DNA from: Dictyostelium discoideum
Taxonomy: Eukaryota
Reading direction: 5' to 3'
Length of the DNA: 64,000 nt
Assembly: GCA_000004695.1 (NCBI GenBank)
Contig: CM000152.2
Coordinates: forward strand, 1,888,001-1,952,000
The notes below the pieces were generated by a model. That model was not told the origin of the DNA and ran no database searches. It worked only from the letters and a program-made list of their open reading frames with translations. The first letter of the stretch is position 1. Each line of letters begins with the position of its first letter. Shown piece by piece: positions 14,420-28,287 of the stretch. Both the position numbers and the translations under genes were made by a program.

Positions 14420-15976
14420 TTTATTAACTTAAATATTATTTTTAACAAAATATATATATATATATTAATTTTTATTTAATTTTAGAATCACACTAAATTA
14501 TTAACTCATTTAATAACAAATCCATTAAAATTAAGAATTGAAGATTATCCAAGAGCAGATTGTCAAATTTTATTATATCCAGTTGAAGCATTTAATAGAT
14601 TTTATTATAAATATACAATTAATGGAATGAATGTTGTTTTAGTTAGTGTGTATTTATTTTTTTTAAAAAAAAAAATATTTATATATATATAGAATTATTT
14701 TACTAATTTTTTATTTTTTTATTTTATTTTATTTTTAGATTTATTACCATTTGTAATTATATCATTGGTATTTGGATTCTTTTTAGAAGATAAGATAAAT
14801 CCAATTGTTATATTTATTTGTTGTTTATTATCAACAATTCCATTATCATATTATAATGGTATGGCGATTGCAAGTTTATCAGCACAAACTAGTTTTGCAA
14901 TTGGTGCACTTATTAATGCAAGTTTTGGATCGATTATAGAGCTAATTCTTTATGTTGTTTCAATTAGTGGTGCACAAGAAGAGGTAGCAAGATCAGCGTT
15001 AACAGGAGCATTATTAGGTTCAATGCTATTGATTCCAGGTTTATCTATGGTTATTGGTGGTTTAAAACATAAGGAACAACGTTTCAATCCAACTTTAATG
15101 GGAGTAAATACCATTCTTTTGATGATTGCTGTTGTTGCAGCATTTGCACCAACATTATTCTATAAAATTTATGGTAGCTTTGGATTTAGCTGTACATCCT
15201 GTATTCAACAACCAACCAATGTTACAGTGGATGGTGTTGCAATCAATGGAACCACCACCAATACATTGATGGATTGTGGTAAATGTACAATCGTCTCGTC
15301 GGATTTAGACGAAGATCCAATTTACACACAAAAAGCACGTACACTTATGTATATTTGTTCTGGTATACTTCCATTGACCTACTTCATTGGTCTTTTATTC
15401 ACATTGAAAACTCATACTCATATACTTCATGCACCACCAGAAAAGAAGAAACAAGAGCCTACTGATGAAACAAAGGAAAAGAGTATAGAATATGAATGGT
15501 CAAAATTACAATGTATCATTGTGTTATTGGCTTGTACAACCATGTTTGCATTGGTATCAGAGAAAATGGTTGGTACGATCGATCCAGTGGTTAGTGCATT
15601 GGGTTTAACACATGAATTTTTAGGTGTAACCATTCTTGGTATCATTCCATCCGCTGCAGAGTATCTAAATGCCGTCCAATTTGCAATTCATAATAATATG
15701 CCTTTGGCTTTAGAAATTGGTGCTTCTGCTGCCGTTCAAATCACTTTATTCCAAATGCCAGTATTGGTTTTCATTTGTGCAGTTTATAATCATCTAAGTA
15801 GTGAAGGATCTTTCACTTTAATTTTCCCATTAATGGATTTCTTTGCTATCTTTTTTGGTGTAATGGTTATGAATTTAGTATTTTCAAATGGTAGAACAAA
15901 TTATTTCATTGGTTCAACTCTAGTTATCATTTATTTAGTAATTGTATTTTGTTTTTATTTTACTCCAGTTGCTTGA
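13303..15976 (+). CDS. Cation/H+ exchanger of the CaCA/CAX family (Ca2+:H+ antiporter-like) with a long N-terminal extension. Four exons: 13303..13846, 13945..14342, 14486..14645 and 14739..15976, about 779 aa.
   Basis: Two alpha-repeat signatures are present: 'GALINASFGSIIELILYVVSISGAQEEVARSALTGALLGSMLLIPGLSMVIGG' and 'LGVTILGIIPSAAEYLNAVQFAIHNNMPLALEIGASAAVQITLFQMPVLV'. Many TM helices follow. Exon 1 is hydrophilic with poly-N/poly-T tracts. Exon 2 is a hydrophobic block ('GFVFWPFGKY...') resembling the DUF307/YccF-type extension seen on fungal CAX-like proteins. Donors are GTAAGT, GTACTT and GTGTGT, and phases check against ORFs 13303 and 14765. Confidence 0.65.
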
Positions 15977-16583: not shown

Positions 16584-18514
16584 ATGGAATACTATTATTA
16601 CATTATAATAGCAGCAGTTGGTGGCTTTGCAATATTGACATTTATAATTATAGTTGTATTGCGATTAAAAAAATCACAAAAAATGAGAGAGCCATTATTA
16701 CCAAAAGAAAAAGGAAATGTTTTTGTTTATAAAAGAGATACTCAAGTTCAAGAAAAGGGTAAATAAATAAAATAAATAATAATAATAATAATTCATATGT
16801 CTTTCATATTATTATTATTATTATTTCATATACTAATATTACTTTAAAAATTAACTTTGTTTAGAGGAACAAGTTATGATGAATGCAAGATTATATTTAA
16901 GATCAACAATTTATAGTTTACAAGATAAAATACCAAAATTTGGATCAAGATCTGATAAAGTATATTTTGGAGTTTTAGGTAATTCATTAAATAAATTAGA
17001 GAATGATAGAATTATGGCAATGGTACCAGTTTCAAAACATTGGCCAATTCCATTAAATTCAGAAGCTGGTAGAACCACATTTAGAACCATCATTAAATCA
17101 TTGGAAATTCATCCATTCATTAGTGTACCATTATTGGTTGATTTTATACCAGAGAAACATGTTGCTGTCTCTGTTAGACCTTTCTATGCCGATAGAGGTT
17201 CATTAAGAGATTTCATACATAAATCAAAACCAAAAATGCCATACGCTGATAAATATGATACTCATCTTCAATTAAATGAAAAAATAGTTTCAAAATTTGG
17301 TAGACAAATTTTAGAAGCTTTAATATTTTTAAAAAATCATAATTTCCCTTATTTTCATTTAAATTCTGCAAATGTTTTAGTTGATGATCAAATTTGTTTG
17401 TAAGTTTTTTAATTTAAAAAAAATATATATATAAAAAAAAAAAAAAAAAAAAAATTACTAATTAATTTATTTATTTATTTATTTATTCATTTATTTTAGA
17501 ATAAGTGATTATGAAAATTCATTTTTAGGATTAGAACCAAGATTTTCAGATTTTATTAGACAACATAATGAAAAGATTGATCCAGATGTATTATCATTTG
17601 GTTTAGTATTATTTGAGATGGCATGTGGTTATGAGATGGAGAATCCACATTCAGTTGATATCTCTATTCCAGCACATTGCTATCCAGAAGTTAGAAAAGT
17701 ATTAGAAGCAATTTTTAAACCATTCTATGGTACACCAATTACATTGGAAGAGTTGAGTAAAATGGATTTCTTTTCATATCATAAATTTAAGAATTTACCA
17801 CTTCACAGATTAACTTATACTTCAAGAGAACGTGATATGATGGATGCTGTTATAAAGTTAAATAAAACTTTTCTTTCAACAAATTCAAAACCAAATTCAA
17901 AAGATTTATCTCAACCAAAATTAAAAGATTTAAAAAAACAAAAAAAGAGAAAACAATTAGTATTCACTCAATCTTTTGAACCTATTAAAATGGAGAGTCA
18001 AAATGGTGGTGGTGCTGCTGGCGGTGAATATGGAAATGAGGGTGGTTATGCAATTTCAACTTCTTCTTCATTACCAAGTAATTTCTTGGCAAATGTAAAA
18101 CCTGCAAATTCAACATCATATTCATTACTTTCAAATACTACAACAAATACAACTAATACTTCAACAAGTAGTAGTTTAAATAGTAGTTTCAATAGTAACG
18201 TTTCAACTTCATATTCAAATGCAACAACCACTACAAATACCACTTCTGCATCAAGTGTTTCACCACCAATTTCTTCACCACCTCCACCTCCACCTCCACC
18301 ACCACCATCCAAATCTTCAGGACCACCACCTCCACCACCACCACCACCCAAATCTTCAGGTCCTCCACCTCCACCACCACCCAAATCCTCCCCACCACCA
18401 CCAGCTGATGGCAGTAGAAAAGGTTTACTATCCTCAATTGAATCTTTTTCTTCTTCAAAATTAAAAAAAACAAAAACTGTTGATAAAAGTGGTCCGTTAT
18501 TAAAAAAATCTTAA
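16584..18514 (+). CDS. Membrane-anchored protein-kinase-like (probable pseudokinase) protein with a C-terminal proline-rich region and a WH2-like motif. Three exons: 16584..16758, 16865..17399 and 17500..18514, about 574 aa.
   Basis: Exon 1 encodes a TM helix, 'YYYYIIIAAVGGFAILTFIIIVVLRL'. A kinase-fold remnant follows: 'ADRGSLRDFIHK...ILEALIFLKNHNFPYFHLNSANVLVDD' (degenerate HRD/VAIK) and 'DVLSFGLVLFEMACGYEM'. The tail has SPPPPPPPPPPSKSSGPPPPPPPPP runs, then 'RKGLLSSIESFSSSKLKKTKTVDKSGPL' (the WH2 pattern LLxxI...LKKT). Donors are GTAAAT and GTAAGT. Confidence 0.55.
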
Positions 18515-19000
18515 AACAAAACAAAACAAAACAAAACAAAAAAAAGAAACCAAAACAAAAAATAAAAAATTAAATTATTTAAAAAAAAAAAAAAAAGCAC
18601 ACATTTTATATGATCATGATGATGACGATTAGTTTTTAATTTCTATTCCTTTATAGTGTGAGGTTAAAAATAAGTTAGAAAAAAAAAAATTGAACATGCA
18701 CAAATTAGAGCATTATCATTTTTTTACATCGTTTAATTTTTTTTTTTTTTTTTTTTTTTCCTAAAAAATAAAGCACCGCTTTGGGTGATAATTATGTATC
18801 TGTGGTAAATCTTTAAAAAAATATAAAAAAAAAAAAATTTCAAATAAACTAATTGATTTTCTTTAATAAGGTTTTTTTAAATTAAATTATAATAATATTT
18901 GAATTTCAAACTAATCATTTTCATTAAAAATGGAATTTGATTATCCTTTTTTTGAAAATAAAAAAAAAAAAGAAACAGTGTCATATCTAAGCTATTTTTG

Positions 19001-19065: not shown

Positions 19066-19088
19066 GGGGGTGGGGGTGGGGTAAGGGG
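19066..19088 (+). other. G-quadruplex-forming motif G5-T-G5-T-G4-TAA-G4 in an otherwise roughly 90% AT intergenic region.
   Basis: 'gggggtgggggtggggtaagggg' read directly. It lies about 400 bp upstream of the small GTPase-like gene start at 19472. Confidence 0.6.
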
Positions 19089-19471: not shown

Positions 19472-19718
19472 ATGTATAAAAATTTAAATGTATGTGTTTT
19501 AGGAAGTGTAGCTGTTGGTAAAACTTCAATGATTGAATCATTGACAAATGGAAATTATGATAGAGAACATATTCCAACAATTGAAAATAGATCAATTAAA
19601 TTATTACAACACAAAAAAAAAGTTTATAATATATTTATTCATGATACAGGTTTGTAATCTTTAAATTTTTAATATTTTATTTTTTATTTTTTAATAAAAT
19701 AATAATAAAATTAATAAT

Positions 19719-20643: not shown

Positions 20644-22404
20644 ATGATTGAAAGTAAAATCCCTTCACAATTTTCAATAAATTCACATAATAATGTATGT
20701 GAAGCTTCAAGTTATTCTGATCATAGTTTTGATGATAATACCCAATCAATTCCTTTATCACAAGTAGTGATTAGATCAGATTTTGCCAATGAAACATCAG
20801 AGAGACAATCCAAAATTATAATTGAAAGATTCAATCAAGGTATAAAGAATCCAGCATTTACAGATTCTCCAGCATTGGGTCGTGCTTTTCCACGTTTAGA
20901 TTCAAGTTATTTTGCTTTAAGTAATCGTGACAAAGTTGCTGAATTATTCGATCCACGTGGTCAACGTTTTAGTACAGTTTATTCTGCAGATCCAACCACT
21001 ATCATCGAATACAATGGTGGAATCCCAAAAACTAGTCGTTATTTCACTTTATACGGTAAAACTGTTTTAAATGTGCCATCTGGTCATTTCGCAAAAGCCT
21101 TATCAAAGAATCGTCCAGTAATTTATGGTGAAGGTCCACATGTAATAATTGATCCAACTTTTATATTTGATGAAGCAACTGGCTTTGTTAATCAACAAGA
21201 ACCATTTATAAACCATTCAACCATTAATGTTCTTCGTGTTCCATCTGGTAAAGTTGCAAAAGTTTGGGTTGGTACTCAACCATTGATTTTAGAATCTCGT
21301 CGTGAACCATACGTTTTTGTTGATGCTCAATTTAAAGTTGTCGAACAAATAGGTAGTCAAGATAAATACTTTCATAATTCATCAGCTACATTTATGGAAC
21401 ATGGTTCAATTAAAAGAATTATTCCACATACTGGTGAAGTTGCAGTCACATATAATAATGGTGTCCTTGAAATTATTCAAACACCAAAAGATGGTAAACC
21501 AGTTATTATCGATTCTCCAACTCATAATTTTGAATGTTTCATTCAAACAAGTTTACAAACTTGTTTATTCCCATCAAATGAAACTAAACAACAAGCTATT
21601 AAAGATAATAAAAATGCGACATCTGATGAAGTTAATTTAAAAATTTTCCAAACTAGAGATTCACTTCGTGTTGGTGTTGTATTGGTAATTGCATTTAGAA
21701 TAATTGATCCTCAAATTGCACTCACTAAATTAGGTAAAGAAGGTATTATCAATCATATTGAAAATATTTCATTCGCCGATATGGGTAAAGCAATTCAATT
21801 AAGTACTTTACAAGAGATTATGTATTTCAATGATACAAAGCCATCTGCAACTATTGATGCATCTGCTCAAACAATTCAAGATCGTGTAAAATCTCATTTG
21901 GCAAGAGATTTATATGAATATGGTATTGAATTAGCTCGTCTTCAAATTGAAACAATAAAAGTTTTGGATACCGAAATCGCTAAAAAACTTGCTGGTCAAT
22001 CAGTTACATCTGCTGAATTCACAACCAAACAAGCAACGCTTGTAAAAGAATATGATATCAAAACCACTGAAGCTCGTCTTAAAGCTGAAACCGATAATAT
22101 TGCATTAGAACAAAAAGGTATAGCAATTATTGCAGAAGCTCAAGCAAAATTAGAATCTGCTAAAAAACAAGCTGAAGCTTTACTTGTTACAGCTAATGCT
22201 CAAAAGAAAGTTCAGGAAATACAAGGTGAATTATATTCCAAATTCCCGATTCTCGCTGAAATTGAATTGGCTAAAATTAAATCCGAAGCTTTAAAAAGTT
22301 CAACACTTTATATTACTCCTCAAGATGCTGGTAACTTTATGAATTCACCATTCTTTTTCATGGAAAGAATGCTTGGAAAACAACAAACCAACATTAAAAG
22401 TTAA
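20644..22404 (+). CDS. SPFH/band-7 flotillin-like protein (vacuolin-like), paralog 1. Single exon, 586 aa.
   Basis: An SPFH-like core '[36 protein letters not shown]...[24 protein letters not shown]' is preceded by an internal partial repeat '[13 protein letters not shown]...HVIIDPTF'. The C-terminal coiled coil with (E/A)-rich '[26 protein letters not shown]...[28 protein letters not shown]' resembles the flotillin domain. Size and architecture fit Dictyostelium vacuolins, but this is recalled, not verified. Confidence 0.5.
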
Positions 22405-23214: not shown

Positions 23215-24993
23215 ATGATTGAAAGTAGTTCATTTATGAAAAAAACATCATCTGAAAATTCAATTGGTAGTCGTTCTAATATTCATGAAGCTTCAACATT
23301 TTCTTCAGAACATGAAAATGGTGATCAATCCCTTACCATTTCACAAATTGTAATTAGATCAGATTTTGCCAATGAAACATCAGAGAGACAATCGAAAATT
23401 ATTTTAGAGAGATTCAATGAAGGTATAAAGAATACAGCATTCACCGATTCTCCAGTATTGGGTCGTGCTCAACCTCGTCTTGATGTTAGTTATTTTGCAA
23501 TGGCACATCGTAATCAAATTGTAGAGTTATTCGATCCACGTGGTCAACGTTTTGGTACAGTTTATTCAGCTGATCCAACTGTTGAAATTAGATATCTTGG
23601 CTCAGTTGCAAAAACATGTCGTTATTTCGGCTCATTCGGTAAACACGTTTTAAATGTCCCTTCTGGTCATTTTGCAAAAGCAATGACAAAGAATCGTCCA
23701 ATAATTTATGGTGAAGGTCCACATGTAATTATTGACCCAACCTTTGAATTTGATGAAAGATATGGTTTCGTTAATCAACAAGAACCATTTATAAACCATT
23801 CAACCATTAACATTCTTCGTGTTCCATCTGGTAAAGTCGCAAAAGTTTGGATTGGTACTCAACCATTAATTTTAGAATCTCGTCGTGAACCATACGTTTT
23901 TGTTGATGCTCAATTTAAAATGGTTGAAGATACTAGTGAAAGTGGTAATAATAAATACTTTAAAAATTCATCAGCTACATTTATGGAACATGGTTCAATT
24001 AAAAGAATTATTCCACATACTGGTGAAGTTGCAATCACATATAACAATGGTATTTTAACAATTATTCCACCACCAAAAGATGGTAAACCAGTTATTATCG
24101 ATTCTCCAACTCATAATTTCGAAGGTTTCATTCAAACAAGTTTACAAACTTGTTTATTCCCATCAAAAGAAACTAAACAACAAGCTATTAAAGATAATAA
24201 AAATGCGACATCTGATGAAGTTAATTTAAAAATTTTCCAAACTAGAGATTCACTTCGTGTTGGTGTTGTATTGGTAGTTGCATTTAGAATTGTTGACCCA
24301 GAAATTGCACTCACTAAATTAGGTAAAGAAGGTATTATCAATCATATTGAAAATGTTTCATTCGCCGATATGGGTAAAGCAATTCAATTAAGTACTTTAC
24401 AAGAGATTATGTATTTCAATGATACAAAACCATCTGCTAACTCCACCAATGAAACTGTACACACAATTCAAGATCGTGTAAAATCTCATTTAGCAAGAGA
24501 TTTATGTGAATATGGTATCGAATTAGCTCGTCTTCAAATTGAAACAATGAAAGTTTTGGATTCCGAAATCGCTAAAAAACTTGCTGGTCAATCAGTTACA
24601 TCTGCTGAATTCACAACCAAACAAGCAACACTTGTAAAAGAATATGATATCAAAACCACTGAAGCTCGTCTTAAAGCTGAAACCGATAATATTGCATTAG
24701 AACAAAAAGGTAAAGCAATTATTGCAGAAGCTCAAGCAAAATTAGAATCTGCTCAAAAACAAGCTCAAGCATTACTAATTACTGCTGAAGCTCAAAAGAA
24801 AGTTCAAGAAATGCAAGGTGAATTATTTACAAAATATCCAATTCTCGCTGAAATTGAATTGGCTAAAATTAAATCAGAAGCTCTTAAAAGTGCAACACTT
24901 TATATTACTCCTCAAGATGCTGGTAACTTTATGAATTCACCATTGGTTTATATGGATAGATTACTTGGACACCAACAAAAATTAGAAAAATAA
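23215..24993 (+). CDS. SPFH/band-7 flotillin-like protein (vacuolin-like), paralog 2. Single exon, 592 aa.
   Basis: It is about 80% identical to 20644..22404 over its full length, differing mainly in the first 35 residues and a short insertion ('[11 protein letters not shown]'). The pair is a head-to-tail tandem duplication with an 810-bp spacer. Confidence 0.5.
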
Positions 24994-25377: not shown

Positions 25378-28287
25378 TTATTTCTTCTTTTTAGTTTTTG
25401 ATGGATTTGTTTGAGATGATTTATTTGTTTTCTTTGCTGGAATTGTGATGACTGGACTTGAACTTTCAAAAGCCAAACCTGGTTCATCACTTCTTGCTAA
25501 AAGATATTCATTCAAAAAGATATTGACCTCTGAACTATAACCAAGACATTCTTGAGCGCATTCACGAATTTCACTTTCAGTTTTCATTGAACAAAGGAGT
25601 TCAGTGATAACAGAGACATCATTGCTAGTTAATGCCTTCAATTGTTGATGACACCATTTGATGAAATCTGGTCTAGCTTGACCTGGTACGGTGGTTGTGG
25701 TTGTTGGTTTTTTATTCAAGGTTGAAACTGGTGTATGCTTACTAACGATGGTGGCTTGTCTATTTGGTAAAATGTTTAAGGTTGGATATTCGTTGAATGA
25801 ACCGACTTGTTGTTGAACTGGTGCATTACTTCTAACAGAGAGTGATGGTTTGGCGGTGGTATGTTCTGACCAGAAATCATCAGTTGGTCTGCTTGTCATC
25901 TTATTGACTGCGGCAGATGATAAAGTGGCTGGTTGAGATGGTTGAGATGGTTGTGATACGTTGTTAATGTTGTTATTGTTGTTGTTATTGATTGAAATTG
26001 GTGAATATGAAGAATGGTTGTTGTTGTTGTTTGGTTTTCTTTCATCAATTGACCATGGTGATGAGGCGTTGAAAGTTGATTTTTGATGTTCTTGTTGAGC
26101 TTGTTGTTGTTGTTGTGCTAATTGTTCTTGTTGTTGTTTCTTTTCCTTTTCTTTGGCTTGTTCTCTCATGACATCAGAGAGTGATACTGGTTTCTTTCTT
26201 TCAAAGTCAGATGCATTATCAACGATTGGTTGTTCTTTCTTTTCACGAGCTCTCTCTTCCTCTTGGATATCTTTTAATGATAATGATTTAACGCCAAGAT
26301 CTACTGACCAAGTTGGTGTGCCTGCACCTGCCCATTTCATAACATTGCTAGAACCATGATTTTTGCTATTTTCAATGTTTCTAATTTTGGCCTCCTCCAT
26401 CTCTCTCTTCTTTTGCTCTCTTTCCTCTGCTTGAATCTCTGCTAATGATTTCTTCTTTGGAACAACTGATTCTGATGGAGCCCATGGATTTGCGGCTGAA
26501 ATGATATTTGTTTCTGTTGTGGTGGTTGTAGTTGTGGTTGCAGTGGTGTTATTATTGGTGATGGTAGTGGTAGATGTGTTGTTAGTGGTAGTGGTTTGTA
26601 TGGTGTTATTATTAATTTCTTCAATAGCATTTTGAATGGAAGCTTCTTCTTGTTCCTCTTCAATATCAATTGGAGCTTTTAATTCTTCAGTTTGGACGCT
26701 AAGGTGAGCAGTTGTGGTTGTTTTATTTTCTTGGTTATTTTGTTTAATTGATGTAGTCCAAACACCTTCATCTTCATTATCTTGTTGTTGTTGTTGGTAG
26801 GTGGTGGTTGAGGTTGTTTGTTGTTCAACTTGAGTTTGTTGTTCAGTGGTTGGTTGTTGTGGTTGCTCAACTGTATTTTCGTCCTCTTCTATGTTGATTT
26901 CTTCAGTTTGTTGTTCTAATGGTTCTTCTGGTTGGGATTGTTCTACTTGTTGTTGTTGCTGTTGTTGTTGTTGGTGTAAAAGTGCTTGTTGTTGTTGTTG
27001 AAGTAAGAGTGCTTGTTGTTGTTGAAGATAATAGTTTTGTTGTTGTTGGACTTGTTGGACTTGTTGAACTTGTTGTTGAGCTTGTTGTTGTTGTTGTTGA
27101 GCTTGTTGTTGTTGGAGCATATGTTGGAAAAGTTGGATTTGGGATTGTTGAGATTGTGGTGTTTGGATTGGTTGGAATTGTGTGTATTGATATTGAATTT
27201 GCATTAATTTTTGTTGATGTAACATACATTGTTGAGTATAATGTTCTTGTAATTGTTGGAGTTGTTGGAGTTGAAGTTGAGTTTGGTTATTTTGTTGTTG
27301 AAGTTGAAGTTGTTGGAATTGTTGGGTAATTGAACTAATGTATTGTTGGAACATAACAATTTTTTGTTGCAACATAATTTGTTGTTGATATAACATATAT
27401 TTGTAAGCTTGTTCACTTTGTTGTTGTGATTGATTATGTGGTTGTTGTCCCCACATTTGTTGCCACATTTGTTGTTGTTGTTGTTGTTGTTGTGATTGAT
27501 GATGTTGTTGATCAAATATTGAGTGTTGTTGTGGTTGTTGTTGTTGTTGTGGTTGTGGTTGTGGTTGTTGTTGTTGTGGTTGTTGTTGTGGTTGTTGTTG
27601 TTGTGGTTGTTGTTGTGGTTGTTGTTGTTGATGTTGTTGGTGTTGTGGATGTTGATGTTGATGTTGAGGTTGTTGTTGTTGATATTGTGGAGAACTAGTT
27701 CTTTCAGCTGGTGTATCATTAGAATCACTAATTGGATTAATACCAAAGGTAGAAGTTGTAGTAGTAGTAGTTGGATTGGATGATGATGAAGTTGGTGAAG
27801 TTGGTTCTAATGGACCAAAAGAGTTCATATCCTTTTTCTTTTGATCATCAAAGAGTGTTGGTTTCAAAAGATCCTTTTCAAATCTCTTTTCTAACTCCTC
27901 TTCGATGGAATCATGATCAAGTGAATCATCATCGTTCTCTGTGGAATTTTGGCTACTTGCGTCATCCTTTTCAAAGACTTTGAGATCACTAACCGATGAG
28001 AATGGAGCATCTGGATATGCATTCAACAACTTTTTCAATTCAACAAAATTGCCTTCACCTCTCTTTACCATTAAAGATACTGAAAAATAACCTGCTTTGT
28101 TCCAAGAGTCCATTTCCATACTACTGAAAGGTCCTTGAGTGCAATTTTGTGGATCTAAATAATACCATACCTTTCTATCATCATCCTTATTGGCTCTCCA
28201 ACTAGAAGATTGAGATGATGGTGATGGTGAATTTGCCCATTTTGGTTTTGACATTCTATCATGAGACACTAATAATTTTTTAAAAAG

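Follow-up and report, generated by a model that had tools for sequence, protein, structure and literature searches.

slob2 of Dictyostelium discoideum: a Slob/PXK-family gene predicted to encode a membrane-anchored pseudokinase with a polyproline and WH2 tail

The gene slob2 of Dictyostelium discoideum occupies positions 16584-18514, on the + strand, of the 64,000-nucleotide stretch of DNA analysed here (the window; contig CM000152.2, positions 1,888,001 to 1,952,000). Base composition across the window is dictyostelid-like, with a GC content of ~0.19-0.36 per 2-kb interval, mostly ~0.2-0.27, and extremely AT-rich spacers. Joining the three slob2 exons (Table 1) gave an open frame of 1725 nucleotides, that is 574 codons plus a stop, and the unspliced frames run into stops at 16766 and 17403. 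The 574-residue product was found to be identical, residue for residue, to EAL67800.1, XP_641782.1 and UniRef100_Q54WZ5 (UniProt Q54WZ5), recorded for D. discoideum AX4 under the names "Slob family protein kinase" and "Probable inactive serine/threonine-protein kinase slob2". An earlier reading made from the sequence alone (the sequence-only reading) had placed the exon junctions at 16758/16865 and 17399/17500; since its product is the reference protein, these junctions are those of the reference annotation, and in alignments of orthologues conservation is unbroken over both. The locus is therefore the already annotated gene slob2, and its recovery here is a rediscovery, not a discovery.

Much of what can be said of this gene has been recorded previously, including its family, predicted inactivity, membrane anchor and WH2 motif. 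The D. discoideum kinome paper counted SLOB as one of the conserved kinase families predicted to be inactive, noted the N-terminal membrane anchor of slob2 and suggested the endoplasmic reticulum (ER) membrane as a possible destination (Goldberg et al. 2006, PMC1420674); the slob2 of that paper is the same gene and does not differ from the protein analysed here. The WH2 motif is likewise on public record, with Pfam PF02205 precomputed for slob2 and orthologues named "WH2 domain-containing protein". The paralogue slob1 was not identified among the homologues returned by our searches. Taken jointly, the identity, family and architecture of slob2 can be regarded as practically certain.

Table 1. 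Features of slob2 and neighbouring genes, in positions of the window
Feature	Position	Strand	Residues	Remarks
slob2 exon 1	16584-16758	+	1-58 and first base of codon 59	ATG at 16584; GT donor at 16759
N-terminal hydrophobic segment IIIAAVGGFAILTFIIIVVL	16602-16661	+	7-26	20 residues; predicted signal-anchor transmembrane helix
slob2 intron 1	16759-16864	+		106 nucleotides; GTAAAT...TTTAG; 10% GC
slob2 exon 2	16865-17399	+		N-lobe and catalytic-loop part of kinase-like domain
Slob/PXK-type kinase-like domain	16867-17824	+	60-345	Split by intron 2
His223 codon	17356-17358	+	223	Position of the HRD catalytic Asp
Asn228 codon	17371-17373	+	228	Retained catalytic-loop Asn
slob2 intron 2	17400-17499	+		100 nucleotides; GTAAGT...TTTAG; 5% GC
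slob2 exon 3	17500-18514	+		Remaining kinase-like domain, linker, polyproline and WH2; stop TAA at 18512-18514
D240-Y241-E242	17507-17515	+	240-242	Replaces DFG; Asp kept, Gly changed to Glu
Polybasic patch KLKDLKKQKKRK	17918-17953	+	377-388	Just past the last helix of the kinase-like domain
Linker	17960-18277	+	391-496	Low-complexity, Ser/Thr/Asn/Gly-rich, poorly conserved
Proline-rich region	18278-18403	+	497-538	
WH2 motif DGSRKGLLSSIESFSSSKLKKTKTVDKSG	18407-18493	+	540-568	Within the tail GSRKGLLSSIESFSSSKLKKTKTVDKSGP
cax1-type open reading frame	14765-15976	+		Immediately upstream of slob2; Pfam Na_Ca_ex, 83.9 bits; possible upstream exons from ~13303
Ras-family exon	19472-19657	+		Downstream of slob2; P-loop LGSVAVGKTS; Pfam Ras, 31.9 bits
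Vacuolins vacC and vacB	20644-22404 and 23215-24993	+		Tandem intronless open reading frames of 586 and 592 residues
GYF gene	25378-28269	-		963-residue open reading frame; N-terminal GYF, 59.9 bits; very long poly-Q/Q-rich tracts

For assignment of slob2 to a family, a whole-protein word-index homology search was run, in which 8000 candidates were scored; its best match to full-length slob2 from outside the Amoebozoa was an Elysia protein that combines PX, kinase-like and WH2 regions (E = 6e-28). This search was swamped by low-complexity words and was redone with the domain, an HMMER scan and a profile. The exhaustive HMMER scan, across 1.84 billion cluster representatives, returned 536 relatives at E<=1e-3 and 304 at E<=1e-10. 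PXK-named proteins of fishes, molluscs, cnidarians, bryozoans and insects were found with the kinase-domain profile, as were insect "slowpoke-binding protein" and a "Slob family protein kinase" from Pelomyxa. By blastp, the slob2 domain matched four of five insect Slob sequences at 1e-32 to 1e-27 (the weakest Slob isoform at 1.7e-17) and PXK sequences at 1e-31 to 1e-22, with plant WNK-like controls at ~1e-6. The domain also carries the signature of the Slob/PXK family, namely H223, N228, D/G-x-E at 240-242 and the motifs GSLRD and GRQILEAL. On this evidence slob2 is a bona fide family member by sequence, with metazoan PXK and insect Slob as its closest relatives, and the PXK-like placement proposed earlier is upheld by the profile search, blastp and the active-site signature together.

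The sequence-only reading had further described a PXK-like layout in which the PX domain is absent, and this was confirmed: no match to PF00787 was obtained with Pfam, nor any match to the PX regions of PXK with phmmer. The kinase-like core starts after just 59 residues, of which the hydrophobic segment takes up 20. Because it has no PX domain, slob2 falls outside the PXK subfamily.

For structural characterization of the kinase-like domain, residues 39-372 (16698-17905) were modelled with AlphaFold2 on a 48-sequence alignment. The Pfam profile PK_Tyr_Ser-Thr was matched just above its cut-off (24.7 versus 23.1 bits). The model had a mean predicted local distance difference test score (pLDDT) of 89.4 and a predicted template modelling score (pTM) of 0.89. 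When it was compared with the PDB by Foldseek, 1961 matches were obtained at E<=1e-3, and all 50 of the 50 matches listed were protein kinases, with a Foldseek probability of 1.00 for MARK2, PhK-gamma, HCK and others and with CaMKII also among the matches. A kinase fold, as originally proposed, is thus borne out by the model and its structural matches. A sequence search of the PDB with the whole protein gave UBR4 and MEGF8 as top matches; these were driven by polyproline and low complexity and were dropped, and the domain and tail were searched separately.

Active-site residues were assigned from an ungapped HMMER alignment with HCK, which sets Y221-F222-H223 on H-R-D, N228 on the catalytic-loop Asn and D240-Y-E on D-F-G; a plant WNK8 control aligns its own HRD to the same slob2 positions, 221-223. 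Residues were then counted across 251 sequences, family members plus controls, in a profile alignment. At position 223, His was found in 207 of 249 sequences, and Asp in two WNK controls only. Position 228 was Asn in all but one of the 248 aligned sequences (247/248) and invariant in a further alignment (A3). Asp occupied position 240 in 151 of 245 sequences, Gly in 61 and Glu in 21, and Glu occupied position 242 in 234 of 245. In the modelled beta3 strand, the position of the beta3 Lys is taken by Val112, the last residue of M109-A-M-V112; across the family this position holds V, T, L or I, and Lys is never among the commonest residues. The Gly-rich loop of slob2 is reduced to GSRSDK, with one Gly. 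The protein has therefore lost the beta3 Lys and the catalytic base and has kept two metal-binding residues, Asn228 and Asp240. Loss of the canonical VAIK, HRD and DFG residues had been claimed outright; this stands for the beta3 Lys (Val112) and the HRD Asp (His223) but not for the DFG Asp, which is present as D240. With the substitutions at Val112 and His223, the catalytic residues are not all intact.

These losses agree with the record, in which slob2 is predicted to be inactive (UniProt Q54WZ5; PMC1420674) and a list of kinase-like non-kinases without the catalytic Asp includes the Slob family (PMC2754085). The best-surviving alternative is that slob2 is an atypical active kinase, in which Asn228 and Asp240 would coordinate Mg-ATP and some other residue would replace the Lys and Asp, as in WNK or further kinases whose active-site residues are non-canonical. 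The essential invariance of Asn228 and the presence of Asp240 in 151 of the 245 family sequences speak for it, and SLOB-family members of other species may show activity (Zeng et al. 2004, cited in PMC1420674). However, most of the family has His at the catalytic-base position, with Asp confined to the two WNK controls, the beta3 position holds V/T/L/I, the Gly-rich loop has its single Gly, and both the published predictions and the non-kinase listing point the other way. We therefore consider an active slob2 kinase unlikely, and a pseudokinase remains the preferred assignment.

Following the kinase-like domain, the C-terminal part of slob2 consists of a polybasic patch, a linker, proline runs and the WH2 motif. 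The polybasic patch hardly varies among dictyostelids and has a counterpart, KKKRRKSRKK, at the equivalent place in Elysia PXK; it could be an acidic-lipid binding site or a nuclear-localisation-like signal. In the proline-rich region, the (P)9-10 tracts pointed out previously are present as P10 (497-506) and P9 (512-520), together with P7 (525-531) and P4 (535-538), and the region keeps its position just upstream of WH2 in amoebozoan and PXK relatives.

The WH2 motif scored 27.6 bits against a Pfam PF02205 cut-off of 23.1 (E = 2.2e-6), and its hallmarks could be readily recognised as L546-L547-x-x-I550 and L558-K-K-T561. Conservation in dictyostelid tails reaches 90% or more at R543, L546, L547, I550, F553, L558-K-K-T561, D565 and P569, in contrast to the drifting linker beside them. 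A search of all PDB sequences with the 36-residue tail gave six matches at E<=10, all of them of WH2/beta-thymosin type. These include the thymosin-beta4 chimera 4pl8_H (E = 0.005), where IEKFDKSKLKKTETQEKN is aligned against IESFSSSKLKKTKTVDKS; the tail also aligns with the WIP WH2 of 2a41_C (GRNALLSDISKGKKLKKTVTNDRSAPIL) and with thymosin-beta4 IEKFDKSKLKKTET, both actin-bound peptides. The WH2-type assignment of the sequence-only reading thus has support from a profile score above the cut-off, from conservation and from PDB matches that are solely WH2/beta-thymosin peptides. By sequence, the C-terminal WH2 of slob2 is bona fide, and actin binding is predicted for it.

It could be argued that the WH2-like tail and proline runs are functionless by-products of low complexity and that the kinase-like domain acts alone, in the manner of channel and pump regulation by Slob and MONaKA. 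Homopolymer runs are indeed abundant in Dictyostelium proteins, and metazoan Slob-like proteins work without a WH2. Against this, the tail is the best-conserved part of slob2 outside the kinase-like domain, directly beside a drifting linker; an equivalent tail is found in other Amoebozoa and in PXK; and it is the tail that passes the Pfam cut-off and matches actin-bound WH2/thymosin peptides only. A functionless tail is for these reasons quite improbable, somewhat more so than an active kinase, and the WH2 assignment is retained.

At the other end of the protein, residues 7-25 have a mean Kyte-Doolittle hydropathy of 3.02 over 19 residues, the next-best window in slob2 reaching 1.29. The N-terminal transmembrane helix proposed previously is supported as a hydrophobic segment at residues 7-26, whose hydrophobicity, though not its exact sequence, is kept in all N-terminally complete dictyostelid orthologues. 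As the ~20-residue stretch is without a small-residue cleavage region, we infer that it is an uncleaved signal anchor and slob2 a single-pass membrane protein. The net charge is -1 in the six residues before the segment and +4 in the fifteen after it (LRLKKSQKMREPLLP), a charge pattern that orthologues share, and by the positive-inside rule the bulk of slob2 would therefore be cytosolic. In the resulting N-out, C-in topology, the lumenal or exterior part would amount to ~6 residues, with everything after the segment exposed to the cytosol.

A cleaved signal peptide, or an anchored protein whose bulk is lumenal or extracellular, so that the polyproline and WH2-like tail never meets actin, is very improbable: the segment does lie at the extreme N-terminus and N-x-S/T sequons are numerous in the linker, but S/T/N-rich tracts are common in Dictyostelium proteins, a ~20-residue hydrophobic region is long for a signal peptide and here has no small-residue cleavage region, RLKKSQKMR follows the segment directly and the flanking charges favour N-out, C-in, and WH2 and polyproline are cytosolic modules that hold the same position across Amoebozoa and in cytosolic PXK. 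A C-terminal ER-retrieval signal was also considered for slob2 and rejected; the protein ends in ...LLKKS, with Lys at -2/-3, which is not a canonical KKXX or KXKXX, and the extreme C-terminus differs between orthologues (KLKK, APKV, SPKL). Because this terminus is non-canonical and variable, ER retention was not adopted in the mechanism proposed below.

To place the slob2 layout across species, the returned relatives were surveyed by hydropathy upstream of the domain, by phmmer with PX regions and by a regular expression for WH2. An N-terminal transmembrane-like segment was found in 66 of 107 N-terminally complete proteins, 20 of which also have a WH2-like tail; a PX domain was found in 7 of the 162 proteins first retrieved. 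The full order of transmembrane segment, kinase-like domain, polyproline and WH2 is present in Balamuthia, Mastigamoeba, Rhizamoeba, Protostelium and Planoprotostelium. Clydonella and Pelomyxa have the same layout with looser WH2-like tails that were missed by the strict regular expression, and the Clydonella protein has a precomputed Pfam WH2. As judged from these sequences, the full layout, with its predicted anchor and pseudokinase, is shared across Amoebozoa. Transmembrane segments without WH2 occur in the sponge Dysidea (in a protein named "slob2"), the brachiopod Lingula, the spider Stegodyphus, Diphylleia and Muranothrix. In the Slob-like proteins of Dysidea, Stegodyphus and Lingula the N-terminal segment reaches Kyte-Doolittle values of 3.3-3.7, and the insect Slob sequences examined are without one, which suggests that many animal Slob homologues may be membrane-anchored.

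A rough neighbour-joining tree was built from 266 columns with 100 bootstraps and rooted on the WNK controls. PXK formed a clade at 100%, and the metazoan Slob sequences, including the members with transmembrane segments, formed another at 99%. The amoebozoan proteins fell on the Slob side, in a group at 100% and apart from PXK, with the exception of Rhizamoeba, which lay outside the group. As this is a distance tree with a distant root, the placement is treated as a lead. The sequence-only reading had the anchor of slob2 replacing the PX domain. That direction is probably wrong, since anchors are common across the family and PX domains rare, and slob2 groups with the Slob branch; the data rather suggest that the integral anchor is widespread and possibly ancestral, and that the PX domain of PXK is the replacement.

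Extending this to the whole protein, we tentatively propose, at somewhat less than even odds, that anchor, Slob-type pseudokinase, polyproline and WH2 together were the ancestral form of the Slob/PXK family, or the form ancestral in Amorphea. In animal PXK, the WH2 would then have been retained, and a PX domain that binds phosphatidylinositol 3-phosphate (PI3P) would have taken the place of the integral anchor. Animal Slob would have lost the WH2 and retained the anchor, as in the sponge, brachiopod and spider, and insect Slob would have lost both. If this is true, the core function of the family would be to link membrane to actin monomers, and slob2 would be a tractable model for it. Beyond the existing record, the additions made here are modest, comprising conservation of the layout throughout the Amoebozoa and the likely ancestral status of the anchor.

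From its domain content, slob2 is somewhat more probably than not a membrane-tethered adaptor that couples a site on the endomembrane or plasma membrane to local actin dynamics. In such an adaptor, docking would be the task of the kinase-like domain, acting without catalysis or as a weak nucleotide binder, a role already put forward for PXK and Slob. The long disordered linker would let the tail extend from the membrane, where the proline runs may recruit profilin-actin or SH3 proteins and the WH2 may bind one actin monomer. A single WH2 without a central/acidic region is unable to activate Arp2/3 alone, and recruitment or delivery of monomers would therefore be likelier than nucleation. A parallel would be PXK, which is tethered through PI3P and takes part in the endocytic trafficking of receptors. 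PXK localises to endosomes (PI3P endosomes, via PX) and promotes internalisation of EGFR and BCR (PMC4288052), and it has been described in endocytosis and migration through actin reorganisation (PMC10859541). Statements made here on the WH2 of PXK draw on the sequence evidence above and on secondary citations. In humans, PXK is a risk gene for autoimmunity, and the roles of its pseudokinase and WH2 are little understood (PMC4288052); the amoebozoan proteins would make membrane tethering with a WH2 tail an old, conserved pairing in the Slob/PXK family.

Several points weigh against such an adaptor. For Drosophila Slob, a kinase activity that can be regulated has been reported (cited in PMC1420674), and slob2 keeps Asp240 and Asn228, so that a purely non-catalytic role is not certain. 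The call of a transmembrane segment and its topology were made with a hydropathy scale and the positive-inside rule, and the many N-x-S/T sequons of the linker would be glycosylation sites if it were lumenal. A search of the literature on slob2 for localisation, topology, actin binding and phenotype found no functional study.

The slob2 locus has been published as lying between cax1 and vacC/vacB on chromosome 3 (bioRxiv 10.1101/582049), and the neighbours found in the window, cax1, vacC and vacB, match this arrangement. The open reading frame upstream of slob2 is consistent with the cation exchanger cax1. The two vacuolin paralogues are 81% identical, each with a Band_7/SPFH domain. According to the same report, the historical vacB- strain has in addition lost vacC, part of cax1 and slob2, so that the absence of slob2 could contribute to its phenotypes, and the strain may already carry a slob2 phenotype.

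Some further features of the surrounding sequence were observed. A short (AAAAC)n microsatellite (18515-18545, +) directly follows the slob2 stop codon. In the AT-rich spacer between slob2 and the Ras-family gene lies a G-quadruplex-like run, GGGGGTGGGGGTGGGGTAAGGGG (19066-19088, +), which is the sole locus in the 64 kb with the pattern GGGG-N1-3-GGGG-N1-3-GGGG; none was found in 100 dinucleotide-preserving shuffles. The GYF open reading frame coincides with a rise in GC content to 0.36 and a strong GC/AT skew at 26001-28000.

Of the known systems with which slob2 can be compared, metazoan PXK (MONaKA) has a homologous kinase-like domain that likewise has His in place of the HRD Asp and keeps the catalytic-loop Asn. 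As in slob2, the domain is followed by a polybasic patch after its last helix, a proline-rich stretch and a C-terminal WH2, and the WH2 tails are near-identical (Elysia PXK SRGALLSSISGFSKSGLKKAVTNDRSAPKV versus slob2 SRKGLLSSIESFSSSKLKKTKTVDKSGP). Both proteins also have a membrane-targeting module at the N-terminus; in PXK this is a PX domain, peripheral and PI3P-dependent, whereas in slob2 it is a predicted integral hydrophobic anchor. At the DFG Asp position, PXK has Gly and slob2 Asp. Slob of Drosophila and other insects and the Slob-like proteins of non-insects share the homologous kinase-like domain, but the Slob sequences examined, unlike slob2, are without a polyproline or WH2 tail. 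Insect Slob differs further in having a long soluble N-terminal extension with no hydrophobic segment, whereas the Slob-like proteins of the sponge, brachiopod and spider have an N-terminal hydrophobic segment as slob2 does.

Among actin-binding proteins, the WH2 of WIP/verprolin (2a41_C) shares with slob2 the R-x-x-LL-x-x-I helix, LKKT and T-x-D-[KR]-S-x-P, and thymosin beta4 has the same spacing of IE-F-x-x-SKLKKT-T. Proline-rich runs stand immediately before WH2 in the WASP, WIP and VASP families, as they do in slob2. The protein has neither an Arp2/3-activating central/acidic region nor a tandem WH2 array. Compared with WIP/verprolin and the beta-thymosins, its WH2 is a single copy, located at the extreme C-terminus and carried on a pseudokinase with a predicted membrane anchor.

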